A DNA stretch of 57,062 nucleotides, taken from positions 1 through 57,062 of the IMG/VR virus record IMGVR_UViG_2554235497_000003. One strand, given 5' to 3'. Below are positions 2,511-31,794 of the stretch, piece by piece. Under the pieces are notes generated by a model. That model saw nothing but the letters and a program-made list of their open reading frames with translations. It was not told the DNA's origin and searched no databases. The translations under genes and the position numbers were made by a program. This DNA comes from a virus. Each line of letters begins with the position of its first letter. The first letter of the stretch is position 1.

Positions 2511-2867
2511 ATGGCGTCAGCCCCATCCCCACCTGATAGTACAGAAAAAACGGCTTTGGCGACCGTCGTCCATCTGATTGGGATATTTACTGGATTTGTT
2601 GGAGCGGGGTTAGTATACCTTATATCCGATAACGAGTTCACGAAAAGTAATGCGAAAAACGCTCTCAATTGGCAGATATTCTTCACCGTCTCTTTCATTG
2701 CGTTGCTACTGGTGGCTATGCTGGATACCTTTTTTAGCGTCCTGATCGCGGTTATTGGTATTACGTTGTTGTTCTTTATTCTTAACCCCGCTTTCTGTAT
2801 TTGGGCGACATACAGAGCAAACCAAGGCGAGGACTGGAAATATCCGATAGCGCCACAGTTCATTTAA
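2511..2867 (+). CDS. DUF4870-like small membrane protein
   Basis: Three hydrophobic segments with NAKNALNWQ and GEDWKYP motifs. Confidence 0.8.
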   Translation: MASAPSPPDSTEKTALATVVHLIGIFTGFVGAGLVYLISDNEFTKSNAKNALNWQIFFTVSFIALLLVAMLDTFFSVLIAVIGITLLFFILNPAFCIWATYRANQGEDWKYPIAPQFI

Positions 2868-3303
2868 CATCTGATTTTATTGTCCTCTGGCTCTATCGAA
2901 ATCCTCTTGCAGCCGTGCGGTTTGCTGAGATGCCAGTTTCGCATCGGACCTGTAGAATCCGATAGACAGAGTAGCTTTAGGCAATGTCAACTCTGAAGTG
3001 TCTCAACAGATACACATGGCGATAACATCGAGCAATTGTAGTTTAAAAACAGTCAGTCGATGAGTGGTGCGAACTACAGTCGATTCTCTGCGGAGCCCTC
3101 CCGTAAGATATGCGCCCTCTATCTTGCACCGTGCTCCAAAAACCATCTGAAACTGATAGAAAGCCCAGCGGTCATTACGCATCTGTAGTTGCCGAACTCT
3201 CTGTTTCGGCTTCTGGTATGTGGCTGAATAAAGAAACTGTGCTACTATCTACTGTTAAATCAATAGAAGGGAGAAACGTGGCCCGGAGGCCGCCGTAGAA
3301 GAG

Positions 3304-3930
3304 TTACCGCTCCGGGGCCGCTTCCGTCACCGGACCCCACATCCCGGCCACGTCCACCACGTCGAGGCCGGAGTTCTGCTCGAGATTGCGAAGGACGTAA
3401 CCTACGCCACGCTCTCGATCCATACCGATCCCTCGGACGTGTTTATACGCCACAAGGGGATTCATCGAACTGTACTCGTAGTGAGCGTACAGGTCGAACG
3501 TTCCATCCCCGTTATCGAACACGAATACGTGCGTCTGCCAGAAGGCAAGCGGGTCAGGGATCAGCGAGTTGTCCGACTCCCTGTACGCCCACGTCGTCAC
3601 TTCGAAGTCCTCGTCCTCGAGATTGCCACGGTACTTCAGACCCGCCATCGGGTTTCGATCGTACCCCATGTCGTGTAGCCACCTCTCAATGGACGGAAGG
3701 TCCGCCTCAACCGTTGCCACGAACTCTGACTCATACGCTCGGTTCAGAGTGAAGAAACCGATCTTTCGAGCGTAAGAGTCGAGAGCTGGGAGCAGGCTTG
3801 GACGAAGTTCGTTCCAGAACGTATCTTCCGGGCCAAGGAACTGTCCATCGAGAACGTGGTAGAAGACATACACCGCAATGAGAACAACTACACTTGCGAG
3901 TAGCTGCTCGAGATAAACTTGCTCAATCAT
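3304..3930 (-). CDS. Membrane-anchored viral protein at the end of the late operon
   Basis: N-terminal TM helix, acidic soluble domain, co-oriented with tail genes. Confidence 0.6.
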   Translation of the reverse strand: MIEQVYLEQLLASVVVLIAVYVFYHVLDGQFLGPEDTFWNELRPSLLPALDSYARKIGFFTLNRAYESEFVATVEADLPSIERWLHDMGYDRNPMAGLKYRGNLEDEDFEVTTWAYRESDNSLIPDPLAFWQTHVFVFDNGDGTFDLYAHYEYSSMNPLVAYKHVRGIGMDRERGVGYVLRNLEQNSGLDVVDVAGMWGPVTEAAPER

Positions 3931-4464: not shown

Positions 4465-4501
4465 ATTACGGTGAAGAGATCAGTCTCTCGTCGATACTCG
4501 A

Positions 4502-5512
4502 TTAATTGTACGAGATGTCTGCGCCGATCGCGAGTGCGTACTCTGTCCACTCAACCAGCTCTGTCGTCTCGGGACACACAACTGCATAGTACCAGTTCGG
4601 GGGGACAAAGAACGGTGTGCCCAATCGGAAACTTTCGTTCTGCGAATGCAGATCCCAAAGCATGATATCGTTCTGCTCAACGGTCGGTGAGATTTGAATC
4701 TGGTATATCGCACGCCCACCGACCGATGCATAGACGCAGATAGGATGTTCCGTGGTGTTCTGATACCATGTATTGAGACTCCGGTTTATGTCTCCATCAG
4801 ACATAATCCACGGACCACCACCACCGACTTCGTTTGAGAGATCGACGTATTCCTTCGTGACAGCGTGCTTGTCGTGCGTCACCGGCCCGTCAACGAAGAC
4901 CTGCGGGGTGATAATTCGGTCCTCGTTCAGCAGGATTCCCTCGTGCTGAATGTCGCCAGTCACGATACCGCCACCAGTCGGTAGCGCTCCTGTCTGACTT
5001 GCTGTGACGTTGTGTGGATTACTGGTGTTCGGGATGTGATCGTTGACGGCTTGAGCAATGCCGTTGTGAGCATCAACAAGAGCAGCGAAGTCAGCGGTGC
5101 TCGGCGCACCAACCTGATCGTTCGTCACGTTGTGCGGGTTCGTGGTGTCCGCTTCGTGGTCGTCGATCTGGTCACGGATCGGTACTAAGTCTGCTTCCGT
5201 CTCCGCAACATCGGATCGGAACGCGACTTCGCGCCATCCGTTGTATTCCTCGTCGTAGATCGCGAGCCTACTGTTGTCGGAACGCCAGCACAGTTCACCA
5301 TTCTCCGGGCTGCCAGGATAGTTCGTCCCTTTCCCTGACTCGAGGCGCTTGTTCGTTAATGACACCAAGTGGTCGATGTCTTTCTGTGCGTTGTGGTTGA
5401 AGAAATTGTCCCACGCATCGACCGGCTGTTCGCCTTCGACGTAGTTGTAGCCATCCGGGTACTCTGACCCGGTATCGCCCCACGTCTTGAGATTAGAAGT
5501 GTAGTCTGCCAT
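4502..5512 (-). CDS. Tail fibre / receptor-binding protein
   Basis: Follows baseplate genes; repeated H..(D/N)T.NPHNVT..Q fibre-type motif. Confidence 0.75.
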   Translation of the reverse strand: MADYTSNLKTWGDTGSEYPDGYNYVEGEQPVDAWDNFFNHNAQKDIDHLVSLTNKRLESGKGTNYPGSPENGELCWRSDNSRLAIYDEEYNGWREVAFRSDVAETEADLVPIRDQIDDHEADTTNPHNVTNDQVGAPSTADFAALVDAHNGIAQAVNDHIPNTSNPHNVTASQTGALPTGGGIVTGDIQHEGILLNEDRIITPQVFVDGPVTHDKHAVTKEYVDLSNEVGGGGPWIMSDGDINRSLNTWYQNTTEHPICVYASVGGRAIYQIQISPTVEQNDIMLWDLHSQNESFRLGTPFFVPPNWYYAVVCPETTELVEWTEYALAIGADISYN

Positions 5513-5514
5513 AG

Positions 5515-6186
5515 TTACTCGAGATAGCCAGCGTAGGTCCCACCGTCGCCTGTTGGTTCACCGTTTTCGTCGAGTCCGCCGTATCCGAACTCGGGATTGT
5601 TCTCACCAAGGTCGTAATCCTGCGGCGTTCTGTACGTGAATGTCCCTTGGATGCTCGTTTCTGTTTGATACCCTGCAGCAACGTTTTCGTTGACGATCTG
5701 TGCCAGCTCAGACGCGCTCAGGCCGAGTTTCTCAATCTCACTCCCCGGAGCGAAGACGAGAACTGTCCCTGGGTTATCTACCATCTCGCGGTAGCCGATC
5801 CGCTCAACGTCAACATCGAGAATGCGAGCCAGTGCATAGAGAAGGTCGCCAACCGTTCCCTCCCCGGACATGAGCGCGAACCGTGCAAACACCCGAGCGC
5901 GGTATCGCTCCACTGGCTCATCCGTGTGTGGCGGAAGCCCCACCATCTTCGCCAACTCGAACAGTTGATCGATCGTCCGAGCATCGCGAACACGTATTGC
6001 ATCAGAGACCGTCTGAACGTCCTCGTCCAATTCATCGATCGCGTGCCCAATCACATCGAGCAGCGCGTAATTGGGGCTGTTGGGATCGTTAGGGATGTAC
6101 GAGGGTAGCTCGTGGACTAATTGATCGCCGTTGGTACTCGCCTTCCGCTCACTCATGGGAGATCGTAATCGAATCGTCGATCGCAC
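5515..6186 (-). CDS. Baseplate wedge protein (P2 gpI-like); likely start near 6156 (MSERK)
   Basis: Directly after baseplate J; ETDERYR-like segment (TDEPVERYRARV). Confidence 0.7.
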   Translation of the reverse strand: MRSTIRLRSPMSERKASTNGDQLVHELPSYIPNDPNSPNYALLDVIGHAIDELDEDVQTVSDAIRVRDARTIDQLFELAKMVGLPPHTDEPVERYRARVFARFALMSGEGTVGDLLYALARILDVDVERIGYREMVDNPGTVLVFAPGSEIEKLGLSASELAQIVNENVAAGYQTETSIQGTFTYRTPQDYDLGENNPEFGYGGLDENGEPTGDGGTYAGYLE

Positions 6187-7375
6187 TGGTTAGCGCCTGT
6201 TCGTTGAACTCCACCGAGAGATTCGCAGTCTCAGTTGGTGGATCAACTCGTCCAATTTTTAGATCAGTAACGTCGTAGACTCCGCGAACGCTACGGATCG
6301 CGAACTCGACCTCACCATAGAGCACGTCCCCGCCAACATCGACCTTCCCCTGAATCTCGTTTTCACTCGAGAGGACACCGCCAATATACGACGTAATAGA
6401 GTCCCTCACGGCAACGTCGCCCTCGTACTCGTCCGTTGTCTGGAGGGTTGCATCAACGTAGATTGGGACCACGTTCGGCCTCGAGAACTTGACCTCGTGT
6501 GTCTGCCCGTTCGGTAGCCGACCCTCAACCTCAACCAGCTCACCGTTGACGCCACCCCACGCCGTGTCACCTGCGGCCTTCTTCTCGATGATCATGTCAC
6601 CGATTGACTGGTCTTCGCCGCCGTCAACGACTAACTCAAATGAGTGGGCCGGAAGGCCACCCGAACTAGTCTGATCGATGTTCGTGTCGTTGATGAAGAT
6701 ACCAACACTGCGAACGTCATCGACACTCTGGACCGCAGTAATCAACGCAGGTGCTGTAGACGCAGAACCTTCCGCCAGGTCTTCCTTTGCACGCTCGCGC
6801 AGCTCATTGTCTGTCTCTTCGTTGCGACCACCGGACGTGCCCTCCTCGTTCGTCACCGCGTCGATCCCCGTCGGTGGACTCGGCATCACGGTGATCGTGT
6901 TCGAGCCAACGTTTCCGTTGATACCGCCCTCGAGCGCACGAATCGGGACCGTGATCTCTGTCTCTCCCTGCTCGATGATCGCAGTTTCCCGTGTTAGGAA
7001 CCGAACCGGATCGATACCCTCAGTCTGTACGATCATGCCCGATGGGATTGCGTAATCGATCGATGCGGGACTGTTTCGATAGAACGTCACCTCTCCCTCT
7101 GCACGTTCAGCCTCGCGACGAGGGACTCCGATCAACGCCGTCAGTAAGTCCAATGCTCGCCCTTCAGCGTAGTCGATTTGTGCAGAACTCAGGACGAGAC
7201 CGATATGCTGCTGCGCTTCCGCAAGCCGATTCGCGACCGGCTGATAGAAGAGACGGAAGACAGCCAGTTGTTCATCGTTCAGATCCTCACCAAAGTACTC
7301 TTTTGCGTCCTCGAGCAGTGCCTCAATGATGTCGTCACTGCTGTCCGGCTGAAAATGTCCATCCTCGATTTTCAT
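6149..7375 (-). CDS. Baseplate J-like protein
   Basis: ALDLL..LIGVPR, A..GG..GNV..NTIT, GGRNEETDNELRER motifs. Confidence 0.92.
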   Translation of the reverse strand: MKIEDGHFQPDSSDDIIEALLEDAKEYFGEDLNDEQLAVFRLFYQPVANRLAEAQQHIGLVLSSAQIDYAEGRALDLLTALIGVPRREAERAEGEVTFYRNSPASIDYAIPSGMIVQTEGIDPVRFLTRETAIIEQGETEITVPIRALEGGINGNVGSNTITVMPSPPTGIDAVTNEEGTSGGRNEETDNELRERAKEDLAEGSASTAPALITAVQSVDDVRSVGIFINDTNIDQTSSGGLPAHSFELVVDGGEDQSIGDMIIEKKAAGDTAWGGVNGELVEVEGRLPNGQTHEVKFSRPNVVPIYVDATLQTTDEYEGDVAVRDSITSYIGGVLSSENEIQGKVDVGGDVLYGEVEFAIRSVRGVYDVTDLKIGRVDPPTETANLSVEFNEQALTSAIDDSITISHE

Positions 7376-25607: not shown

Positions 25608-26318
25608 TTACTCTTCGAACGCTTCAGGATCGTAGCTATCTCGCTCGCTGACGAGGTTGCCCATCACACCGACAATATCGTCCATCAGTTCGCTCGCAGA
25701 TTCGACCTGCTCACCCTTCATCTTCTGCTTGCGGGTAATGCCGAGCGAGTCCTTGATCTTCTGAATGAGACGGACTTGTGAGGCCATCGCCTCATTCAGC
25801 GAATTAGGTAGCTCCTCAGTCTCGACGAGAGTCCCATCGGGAAGGTAGACGCCCTTCTCGCGAATCTCGCCGTGACGCAAGATGTAGTCCTTGCCTCGAG
25901 CTTCCCTGACGATCTCGATCGCAAGCGTGTGGAAGTCATGGGCGGCAGATGGATCGCTCTCGAGGTCGATGTCGTAAGCTTTCGGCCACGAAAGGACCCA
26001 ATCGTAGAGTTCCTCTTCGCGCTCGCTCATCGTCTCGCGCAAGTGCTCGTCAGTAGCGTACATTCCGTGTTTCAGATTCGCCAGCTTGTCCAGATTCTCG
26101 AGCCTCGGTACGTTCTTTCCACCGTGATGCTTACAACGCCCGTTCCGCTCAACGTTCTGTGAAACACAGTAGCGTTGAGGCCCGTTGTAGTCCTCAGGCT
26201 GCTTCGGAATCTTGGCCAGGCAGAACTTGTCTTCGAAGGAGATGTATGGATGATCGTACTCAACCTGCATCTCACGAAGCTCCGCTTCCGTTTTGCCGGT
26301 CACTTCGTTCGATGCCAT
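25608..26318 (-). CDS. terS: Terminase small subunit
   Basis: GRCKHHGG and N.KHG.YA motifs; first gene of the late operon. Confidence 0.75.
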   Translation of the reverse strand: MASNEVTGKTEAELREMQVEYDHPYISFEDKFCLAKIPKQPEDYNGPQRYCVSQNVERNGRCKHHGGKNVPRLENLDKLANLKHGMYATDEHLRETMSEREEELYDWVLSWPKAYDIDLESDPSAAHDFHTLAIEIVREARGKDYILRHGEIREKGVYLPDGTLVETEELPNSLNEAMASQVRLIQKIKDSLGITRKQKMKGEQVESASELMDDIVGVMGNLVSERDSYDPEAFEE

Positions 26319-27010: not shown

Positions 27011-28078
27011 ATGGTTCCGGTTCGAGAGACTATTGAGGACATACTCAGATCACATGGTTTTGTAGCTACGCTTATTGGTGGGATCATCACCATATCCGTA
27101 TTCACATCTGCCTATTTTCTACCAGTTCCATTTGCTAGTACGGTCCCCATTGTCGGAGCGGGGTTCACTCTCTTAACCGGAACTGCCAGTATTTATTTAA
27201 ATCATAAAATAAAGCGACGAGAACGCGATAATGAGAGATTCGGTGAGGCGGCGAAAGCGGTCGAACAGGAACGTGTGCGCGAAGAACGGGACAGAGCAAA
27301 GGCGGATCTCCGTGAGTACCAGCGGATAACGCGCATCCTCGAAGACCGCGAGGTAGATTTAGCGACGCTCATTGACAATCAGACTGAGTCAAGTCAGATT
27401 GCACTCCTTGTATTCCGCGATCAACAAGCTCCAGAAGGCCACGATTTCTACCAAACCGAGAGCGAAGATGACCAGAACAAGTTCATCCGGTACCGTACAA
27501 TGGATGAGTACGATGGGAAGACAATTTCCTCATTCACATGGATGTTGCCGCCGAGTGTCGTTGTCGAAGAAAATCTTGAAAATGCGAATCGTGACGAGTT
27601 GGAGGAGTGGTTCCGTGAGAACGTTTACGACTACTACGGCGATGAGGAGTTTCAAGCGAACGTTCTCTTGATGGGGTTGATGGACGTGAGTTCCATCTTC
27701 TCCATCACGAAAGAGGAAACGAAGCTTGGAAAGTTTGCTGAGAATCTAATTGAATATGACGATGAGTTCTCGGAGGAAGACTTCTACGAAGCCTTGGCCG
27801 AGGAGCGCGTGAACATGCTAGAGGAGGTAAAATCTGGCCGACTTGTATTCTTCCTGCCTGATAGTCTAGACAAAGACACTGTAGATAGAATTCGAGACCA
27901 AAGCGAAGTTGTCAAATCAGAGTTGACTGAGGGCAGACTACGAGAGATAGCCGACGAGGATAGTATCAAACCGCTAAGTAAAGGATTCAAGAAAATTGGT
28001 ATTCCACAACCGAAGAAACTGGCTGGTGAAGTAGTGAAGGAAGCACAGATGTGGGAAGAGAAAATTAACGAAGCCTGA
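27011..28078 (+). CDS. Two-TM, coiled-coil accessory protein
   Basis: Two N-terminal TM helices, charged coiled coil, large acidic domain. Confidence 0.75.
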   Translation: MVPVRETIEDILRSHGFVATLIGGIITISVFTSAYFLPVPFASTVPIVGAGFTLLTGTASIYLNHKIKRRERDNERFGEAAKAVEQERVREERDRAKADLREYQRITRILEDREVDLATLIDNQTESSQIALLVFRDQQAPEGHDFYQTESEDDQNKFIRYRTMDEYDGKTISSFTWMLPPSVVVEENLENANRDELEEWFRENVYDYYGDEEFQANVLLMGLMDVSSIFSITKEETKLGKFAENLIEYDDEFSEEDFYEALAEERVNMLEEVKSGRLVFFLPDSLDKDTVDRIRDQSEVVKSELTEGRLREIADEDSIKPLSKGFKKIGIPQPKKLAGEVVKEAQMWEEKINEA

Positions 28079-28228
28079 GTTATGTCCATAACCACAGTTG
28101 ATAGATTTACGGTCTGTACTCGTCGTGAATTTCACGCCTAATTCTCAGTAGGATGCCTATCTATGGTACACAATTGCTTATTATACTCTCTGATTTCTGA
28201 AAAATTTCTGAGCAACTCACCTCCCCCT

Positions 28229-28360
28229 CGCACCCGCACTTGCGAGCCTGACGGTGTGCCAACCCACCCGTGCATAATGCGCCCGCTCGAGTGCCCGCCC
28301 GCTTCCGCACACCCGCCCGTGGCAACGCGCCCACGTCGCGCTCGAGCGCACCCGCGCCTG
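28229..28360 (+). repeat. C-rich degenerate (R)CCCG repeat cluster, candidate packaging/terminus region
   Basis: CCCG-containing units at 28230, 28264, 28279, 28291 (x2), 28308 (x2) and 28348, after an AT-rich tract. Confidence 0.5.
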
Positions 28361-28741
28361 CGTAGCGCTGCCGATCGCGAACTCGAGGCAACCACTCAGT
28401 GATGCACGCAGTGGTAGCACCGAAACAGTTATTGCTGAGATAACTGCGGGTAATCGTCCAAAGGCCCACAAATCCGATTCCCACTAATCGGCGGAAAACG
28501 GCGGAGAAAGCAGGTCTAGCCGCCCGTTTTCGAGCAGCGCGTCAGAGGCAGCAAATCGGCTATTTGTGGCCAGTGGTATCTGACCAGCGGTAATTCGAGT
28601 GTCTCGACACAGTGAGAACCACATTATTGGCGGAACGGCCTTATTTTCGGTCAATCGTGCTACTGATCACAGGCCGTTGGCAATTCGCTGCCCTCAAGCC
28701 TCGAGACCCTCGAAAACCAGCGATACGTGGCTAATCGGTAG

Positions 28742-28750
28742 CTTTATTAT
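28742..28750 (+). promoter_or_regulatory. TATA-like element upstream of the structured non-coding region
   Basis: CTTTATTAT about 25 nt before the first long hairpin (28774). Confidence 0.5.
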
Positions 28751-28771
28751 CTCCTCGGTTATCCGCTCTGG

Positions 28772-29720
28772 TAGCGATCTCGGGTCGGCTCGAACCGGCT
28801 CGGGTCGCCGTGGCCGTTTGTCGCCACGCAAGCCATGACCGAACGCGGGAATTGGGCGACCGCTCGAGAAAGCGTGTGTGTCCCTGGAGGGGCCACGCGC
28901 CGAAGTCGCGCCAACACGCCATAATCGCGGCTCCTACGGAGCCGTGGGTCAGAGACGCCTCTCACGAGGCCTGCGAAGTGTCGAAGCGTTCGCGAGCTGC
29001 AGCTCTACCGAGCTGCGTGTAAGCCCCCCGGCCTTGCAGGACCCTCCGGGTCCTGAAGTCAAGTCGTCGAGCGCCACCCAACCACCTTCGGTGGTACTAG
29101 CAGACGACGTGAGCCGCGATCCCATAGGGATCGGGACTCGAAGACGCGAGCTACCGGGACCTTCGAAGAAGGTGAACCCTCACGACAGGATCGTGGGACC
29201 AATATCCGTAGCGGTGGAGGCCTTCGGCCTACACGGTGCAGCTCAAGACCGCTCCACCCCTCCGGGGTGCGACGTCGCTCAAGCGAATCTGAGCAACCAC
29301 GGGCAACAGCGAAGCTGTTCAGCGATTCCGTTCCCCCTTCGGGGAGAGCGCCGCAAGATCAGGAACGAGTCCTGTGGACTCGGTAACGAACGAGATACGA
29401 GCGAAGCGGCCCCTTCGGGGGCTTCCGACAAGGTGCAGCGTGCCGGATATGCCACACTCCCCTTGGGGAGTGCCCGGCGAAGGCCATCGAAGCCGGACAC
29501 CGGAAGGTGTCACCTGACCGGATGCGGAAGCCACCACCTTCGGTGGCACAGTAAATCGAATCAACGCAACCCTCCGGGTTGCAGACCTTCGGGTCACAGA
29601 CCGGCGTGGCAGCGACTCGCCTTACGGCGACCGTTCGCTACCCGGTCGGCCCCCTACCAGTTCCTCTGGTAGGTGACGAGCGAAGCGGTTCCCCTTCGGG
29701 GAAAACTACGGTGAGAACAA
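28772..29720 (+). ncRNA. Candidate large structured ncRNA or long structured leader (or ssDNA hairpin array)
   Basis: At least 22 hairpins counted by eye (one at 29740 extends into the next ORF); G-U-containing helices favour the + strand; no credible acidic ORF. Confidence 0.6.
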
Positions 29721-30677
29721 ATGGCAATTGAATCCATCCCCACCTTCGGTGGTAACGACGACGAGAACACCAGCGAGAACACCAACGTTGTTGGTGAAAC
29801 TGTGCAGACCCTCGAGCTGACCGAAGGTCAGATCGAGACGTACACCGAATACGAGGCCTTCGTGGACATGGGCCGCTACGTGGCGAAGCTGCGAGAACAC
29901 GATGACGGCGACGATCTCGAGGCACTCTTCGAGTGGATCGTCGAGAAGAAAGACTCACTCCGTGAGGAGTGCAAGGAACTGCCCGGAAACTTGCCCATGT
30001 TCCGATCGGCCTTCCCGGTCGAAGACAGGATGGGTGACAACTACTACGTTCTTCCTACGGAAGAGGCTGCGAAAGTCGGCATTGACTACCAGGACGAGGA
30101 CCACCTGCTCTTTCCCATCTCCGATGGGAAGAAGTGGCGACCAGCAGTCAGCCTTGGACGGCCAACATACGTTGACGACGACTGGCAGCCAGAACACGGC
30201 GATGAGCAGACCGTCGAAGACGGAAGCACCGAGGGCAACGATACCAGCGGAGCTGTGTCGAGCTTCGACATTAGCAACCTGACGGTTGCCGACATTCGAG
30301 CGACAGTGAGCAACGTCGAAGACGACGAAACCCTCGAAGCGATGCTTGAGGCTGAGAAATCGGGCAAAGCCCGAAAGACGGCGATTGAAGCCCTCGAGAT
30401 GCGAATCCGTGCCCTCAGCAGCGCTGAGGATGAGAGCGAAGATGAGTCCGACGAACCGGAACGGTTCGAAGGCACGGAAACGACCGAAGGGGTCAGCGAA
30501 GCTGTGGCACAGCTCAATGGCAGCGACGACGCGACGGAAGCGGGCAGCGAAAACGACGAAACCAGCGAAGCTGAAAGCGAAGACGCGAACGACGAAGTGG
30601 CAGCCGCAAAGGTCGAGGCACTGAACGCAGCCACTGAAGCGATCACGGAACTCACTGAAGCGATCAAAAACCTGTAG
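29721..30677 (+). CDS. Acidic protein with Rho-N/HeH-like helical domain
   Basis: FDISNLTVADIRATVSNVEDDETLEAMLEAEKSGKARKTAIEALEMRI motif within an acidic low-complexity tail. Confidence 0.72.
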   Translation: MAIESIPTFGGNDDENTSENTNVVGETVQTLELTEGQIETYTEYEAFVDMGRYVAKLREHDDGDDLEALFEWIVEKKDSLREECKELPGNLPMFRSAFPVEDRMGDNYYVLPTEEAAKVGIDYQDEDHLLFPISDGKKWRPAVSLGRPTYVDDDWQPEHGDEQTVEDGSTEGNDTSGAVSSFDISNLTVADIRATVSNVEDDETLEAMLEAEKSGKARKTAIEALEMRIRALSSAEDESEDESDEPERFEGTETTEGVSEAVAQLNGSDDATEAGSENDETSEAESEDANDEVAAAKVEALNAATEAITELTEAIKNL

Positions 30678-31717: not shown

Positions 31718-31794
31718 TCCCTAACGCTTGGTAGCGACGGAAGCCACGAGGGTTCGATTCCCTCTTACGGGATTTCGGGCTTCAATTGCCCGAA
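31718..31794 (+). ncRNA. tRNA-like element T1 plus 3' hairpin
   Basis: TCCCTAA/TTACGGGA acceptor (1 bulge), CGCT-TGGT-AGCG D-like arm, GAGGG-TTCGATT-CCCTC T-arm, then TTCGGGC-TTCAATT-GCCCGAA. Confidence 0.7.

Follow-up and report, generated by a model that had tools for sequence, protein, structure and literature searches.

A candidate large structured RNA at the early end of a haloarchaeal provirus

A region of approximately 950 nt (positions 28772-29720, + strand) in a provirus of a haloarchaeon lacks a conserved reading frame and conserves base pairing rather than primary sequence across related viruses. In the absence of transcript data for any member, the region most likely represents an elaborately folded RNA made at the start of the early genes, and it has no match in Rfam. 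Positional counterparts also occur in the cultured haloviruses HF1 (on Haloferax volcanii), HF2 and HRTV-25.

Genomic context and promoter

The stretch of DNA analysed (57,062 nt; hereafter the window) is situated in a 3.46-Mb haloarchaeal genome of the same genus as Natronorubrum bangense, and is a provirus whose large terminase shares 52-55% identity with those of Hafunaviridae. No att repeat was found between the ends of the window, while a tRNA-Thr(CGT) gene near positions 138330-138404 of host contig C26, about 5 kb beyond the window end, represents a candidate integration site, the attP of the HF1 group being a partial tRNA-Thr. The region lies between the divergent terminase small subunit gene (25608-26318, - strand; PHROG 9231; e-value: 5e-87), which is the first gene of the late arm, and an orphan gene coding for a 318 amino acid protein (29721-30677, + strand) which heads the early arm. 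The terminase small subunit gene also lies upstream of the RNA in the loci designated L022, L069, L071, L072, L077, L208, L215 and L216. An AT-richer orphan gene coding for a 355 amino acid protein (27011-28078) is inserted between the terminase gene and the repeat block, and as several homologues carry an HNH gene in this slot, it looks like a swappable cargo site. It is followed by a conserved non-coding block (28176-28265; 61-76% identity to six homologous loci) which, by its position, is a candidate end of the terminal direct repeat, HF2 having its 306-bp repeat at the equivalent place. The wider interval 28176-28540 may likewise represent a terminal repeat or a packaging and nick site.

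An archaeal promoter, comprising a BRE-like element and a TATA box (28733-28751, + strand; TATA box at 28743), precedes the region. It is found once in the window and is conserved in all thirteen family members as well as in HF2-type viruses. On the basis of a -26 spacing (PMC8707807), the transcription start site is inferred near 28769-28774. In HF2 the equivalent position is the left genome end, just inside the terminal repeat, and the first 5 kb are transcribed immediately after infection (PMC7230728).

The product of the downstream gene belongs to a family of unknown function (PHROG 29632) and has no Pfam match. Its N-terminal domain is predicted to be well folded (pLDDT about 90 over residues 31-145), but a fold search gave only generic helical matches (best Z: 7.6). 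Distant homologues of this domain in host genomes (L078-L080) lack the RNA.

Folding, covariation and coding potential

The region had been described in an earlier note, made from the sequence alone, as an ORF-free and hairpin-saturated candidate giant non-coding RNA. Twenty-one of the 22 hairpins listed in that note refold locally, while the remaining one, at 29584, took another fold in the short window used but forms in the whole-region fold. The C(UUCG)G (29414) and C(GGAA)G (29502) tetraloops and both internal repeats it listed are present, although most loops in the region are C(NNN)G triloops rather than tetraloops. The whole region folds far better than dinucleotide shuffles (z: -7.9 on the + strand and -5.5 on the - strand; 20 shuffles), as compared to z-scores of +0.8 to -3.7 for nine other 954-nt tiles. 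The description as ORF-free is, however, not literally correct, as a 264-codon GTG frame runs through positions 28878-29672 on the + strand. This frame has no PHROG or Pfam hit, is broken by 10-28 frameshifting indels in each homologue and shows equal substitution at all three codon positions, and as such is spurious. Furthermore, the hairpin noted at 29740 lies inside the downstream gene, and hairpin saturation does not stop at the start of that gene. The latter holds 16 perfect hairpins against 4.0 expected, largely of the C(NNN)G triloop type (29721-30510), and in nine of twelve members no synonymous shuffle out of 200 reached the observed count. Two of the outcomes which the note held would refute its interpretation, folding no better than shuffled sequence and conservation of a frame rather than of base pairs, were thus evaluated, and neither was observed.

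Twelve homologous regions (796-1202 nt) were collected through the downstream gene and the terminase small subunit from two other genomes and several metagenomes (L002, L069-L073, L207, L208, L215, L216 and the diverged L077 and L211), all located upstream of the same orphan gene where the contig reaches it. The nine that were folded whole have z-scores between -3.1 and -7.9 on the + strand. No new copy was found with the model R1 in 150 sampled haloarchaeal genomes, and there is no second copy in the host, while the diverged L077 was detected by this model with an e-value of 2e-17.

On a structure-blind MAFFT alignment of the core (29316-29561; 10 sequences), RNAalifold gives 52 pairs in nine helices, of which 38 change on both sides, with 93.9% of cells paired. 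None of 500 column shuffles reached any of these measures, and sliding the partners drops pairing to 36-52%. These controls ignore relatedness among only about ten independent sequences, and the structure was derived from the same sequences, so that the values are not p-values. The closing helix (29324-27/29554-57), with a range of 230 nt, nevertheless varies at all four pairs, and an exhaustive helix scan also recovers long-range helices in the 5′ domain. The conserved core (29324-29557) further comprises a hairpin at 29329-50, a long helix (29351-63/29513-26), a conserved GAGUCCU motif (29367-73), a T-loop-like loop near 29394-402, hairpins at 29409, 29455, 29496 and 29530, and the second copy of a conserved GGUGCAG motif (29432-38).

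The 5′ end of the RNA consists of the helices P1 and P2 (28774-28828). P1 is the 14-bp helix with three G-U pairs (28774-28808) which, as the note had proposed, favours the + strand (z: -2.6, against -0.6 on the - strand). It carries a kink-turn pattern in nine of the thirteen members, which is reduced to a 1-nt bulge in the clade of the window. The succeeding 5′ domain (28841-28991) is closed by a long-range helix (28841-46/28986-91) and contains a helix at 28925-31/28941-48, these showing three and four two-sided changes in the blind helix scan, and a possible double T-loop (28951-55 and 28972-76) flanking the hairpin 28957-70, which fits only some members. The middle domain (29175-29241) includes a covarying helix (29179-83/29193-97), a hairpin (29218-30) and the first copy of the single-stranded GGUGCAG motif (29235-41). 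In L208 both GGUGCAG sites change G to A together, matching a change in helix 28925-31, which hints at a switch or an intermolecular contact, although the window breaks that pairing at one position. Whole hairpins are inserted or deleted while the single-stranded motifs stay fixed, which is the pattern of a tertiary-folded RNA. G-U cells outnumber A-C cells 34 to 8 at + strand pairs, and the + consensus fold is more stable than that of the - strand in both domains, pointing to RNA on the + strand.

The 3′ junction and counterparts in isolates

No member has an oligo-T terminator, and the RNA is therefore probably the 5′ part of the first early transcript, which was not apparent from the single sequence. 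Seven homologues carry a tRNA-like t-element just before the gene, consisting of a 6-8 bp acceptor stem, a hairpin and a 5-bp T-arm with a TTCRA loop, the T-arm being 100% paired with three of its five pairs covarying. Such t-elements are cut by RNase P and tRNase Z in Haloferax (PMC4326828). T-loop motifs in tRNA-like contexts also occur at 31752, 33652, 42168 and 42294 in the early arm of the window, consistent with dispersed t-elements. The isolate HRTV-25 has a type II hammerhead ribozyme (6523-6596, - strand; 42.3 bits against an Rfam gathering score of 37) at the same junction, between a folded 1.16-kb region (z: -3.0) and a weak homologue of the same gene. This ribozyme is not annotated in the record and lies directly before gp107, the start of which is probably annotated too far upstream, while the small ORFs gp108-112 lie in the folded region and may be spurious. 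The presence of two different cutting devices at one junction argues that the RNA and mRNA are meant to be separated. The window, L002 and L069, however, have neither a T-arm nor a hammerhead core. They have a long irregular hairpin (29592-29652; z: -4.2), in which the bulges are wrongly oriented for a canonical bulge-helix-bulge, and, alone in the family, a Shine-Dalgarno-like GGUGA (29710-29714). In this clade the RNA may stay attached or be cut by an unrecognised route.

A CDS-free stretch of 1.4 kb (HF2 nt 549-1969) is located behind a similar promoter in HF1/HF2-type isolates and is conserved in 41 Haloferacalesvirus records. It folds at a z-score of -7.8, with 83 two-sided changes among six sequences and G-U cells outnumbering A-C cells 213 to 13. 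It is not annotated as RNA in the record, and no description was seen in those parts of PMC7230728 and PMC8707807 that were consulted. Its core does not align with that of the window's family by nhmmer or model R1 and its next gene is unrelated, and as such it is treated here as a positional counterpart rather than a proven homologue. A more weakly folded, hairpin-rich region (2682-3820, - strand; z: -2.8) follows a TATA box in HRTV-7 upstream of gp104, the latter showing a doubtful match to the family, and this may represent a third form. A related virus (L210) has a different, AT-richer folded region (4471-5700, - strand; z: -4.7) ahead of a distant homologue of the same gene.

Possible roles and comparison with known systems

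We consider it highly likely that the region is a transcribed, conserved and structured RNA, and somewhat more likely than not that it works in its own right as a folded particle which is normally cut free. Under this reading, host RNA polymerase would make the RNA as the 5′ part of the first early transcript soon after DNA entry, and in most family members it would be cut free at its 3′ end by host RNase P and tRNase Z at a t-element, or by the hammerhead in HRTV-25, whereas in the clade of the window it may stay attached, with the gene translated from an internal Shine-Dalgarno site. Release is thus not shown for this very virus, and the triloop hairpins running on into the coding gene are not explained by this reading. 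The weakest step, which remains doubtful, is that the RNA accumulates as a compact, perhaps oligomeric scaffold, whose kink-turn and T-loop surfaces bind host RNA-processing or antiviral factors and tRNA-shaped RNAs, acting as a decoy or platform during takeover. This rests only on these motifs and on analogy with GOLLD and ROOL.

Alternatively, though less likely, the RNA could be a giant cis-acting leader which folds on the nascent transcript and modifies host polymerase or shields the transcript, in the manner of put/EAR-like processive antitermination or nuclease protection, with the 3′ cut merely freeing the mRNA for translation. Its constant location directly behind the first early promoter and ahead of an early gene, the lack of a terminator, the continuation of hairpins into the gene and the lack of a cutting module in the window's clade are in keeping with such a role, as is the production by HF2 of transcripts of up to 35 kb without its own polymerase (PMC8707807). 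However, at 0.8-1.4 kb the RNA appears to be several times larger than known antiterminator RNAs, the interchangeable 3′ cutting modules fit a product that is released, and HF2-type viruses keep such an RNA in front of an unrelated gene. A catalytic RNA, whether through RNase P-like trimming of the virus's own t-elements or as a splicing relic, or an RNP with the adjacent 318 amino acid protein, is unlikely. The possible double T-loop, which fits only some members, would be arranged as in RNase P J11/12-P12-J12/13, T-loop motifs occur elsewhere in the provirus, and linkage to one orphan gene is tight in all close homologues. Nevertheless, no RNase P, group I or group II hit was obtained with Rfam, no conserved P4-type partner strand was observed in the alignments, the helix resembling group I P7 has no invariant G-C pair (G-C in seven and A-U in two of ten), and the region runs from promoter to start codon with no exons. 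Moreover, the protein has no clear fold match and is lacking in HF2-type viruses.

A purely DNA-level element, in which C(GNA)G and C(TNC)G triloop hairpins extrude as single-stranded or cruciform mini-hairpins at the first-entering genome end, serving as an entry pause, origin or end protection, is the least likely. The TNC (52) and GNA (20) triloops make up a third of the 215 perfect hairpins in the family and are GNA on one strand or the other, which probably corresponds to the grammar of stable DNA mini-hairpins, while the excess continues into the downstream gene and the region lies next to the candidate terminal repeat. This cannot, however, explain the G-U tolerance on one strand, the long-range multibranch helices, the kink-turn, T-loops, t-elements or the hammerhead, and the HF2-type regions do not show the triloop bias. 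It is possible, but doubtful, that it forms a second layer, while the hairpins in the gene may otherwise be an extension of transcript compaction. More speculatively, Hafunaviridae and their proviral relatives may make from their first promoter a 0.8-1.4 kb RNA machine with no bacterial counterpart, released by host tRNA-processing enzymes or a hammerhead and using T-loop platforms to capture tRNA-shaped RNAs or the enzymes that handle them, either as an RNA-only particle or as a ribozyme. This would be the first giant functional non-coding RNA class from archaeal viruses; no description of one was found in the literature searched, which did not cover most subscription papers.

The t-elements of seven homologues share with those of Haloferax (PMC4326828) and, by analogy, with MALAT1/mascRNA 3′ processing, an acceptor stem plus T-arm mimic at a transcript junction, which is an expected substrate of RNase P and tRNase Z. 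Here, however, the element terminates a 0.9-kb viral RNA, and it is absent from the window's own clade. The HHphage hammerhead of HF1/HF2 (PMC3088659) is likewise a self-cleaving ribozyme just upstream of a halovirus early gene, but precedes the helicase gene, while that of HRTV-25 is at the RNA-gene junction. The HF1/HF2-type left end shares with the window its genome position, a similar promoter, similar first and last bases and strong covariation. The GOLLD and ROOL RNAs (bioRxiv 10.1101/2024.12.08.627333), with which the earlier note drew a parallel, are similarly very large, multibranched and covarying viral or proviral RNAs with a conserved core, variable peripheral hairpins and a link to tRNA-like elements. 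The parallel is one of analogy only, as the Rfam models gave no hit in the window (e-value ≤ 1), in the region or five homologues (e-value ≤ 10), or in six more loci (e-value ≤ 0.5). The candidate RNA thus resembles GOLLD and ROOL in size and architecture but is a member of neither, and constitutes an independent case in another domain of life, situated in an archaeal virus behind a TATA promoter, fixed at the head of the early arm and probably co-transcribed with a gene rather than located near tRNA islands.
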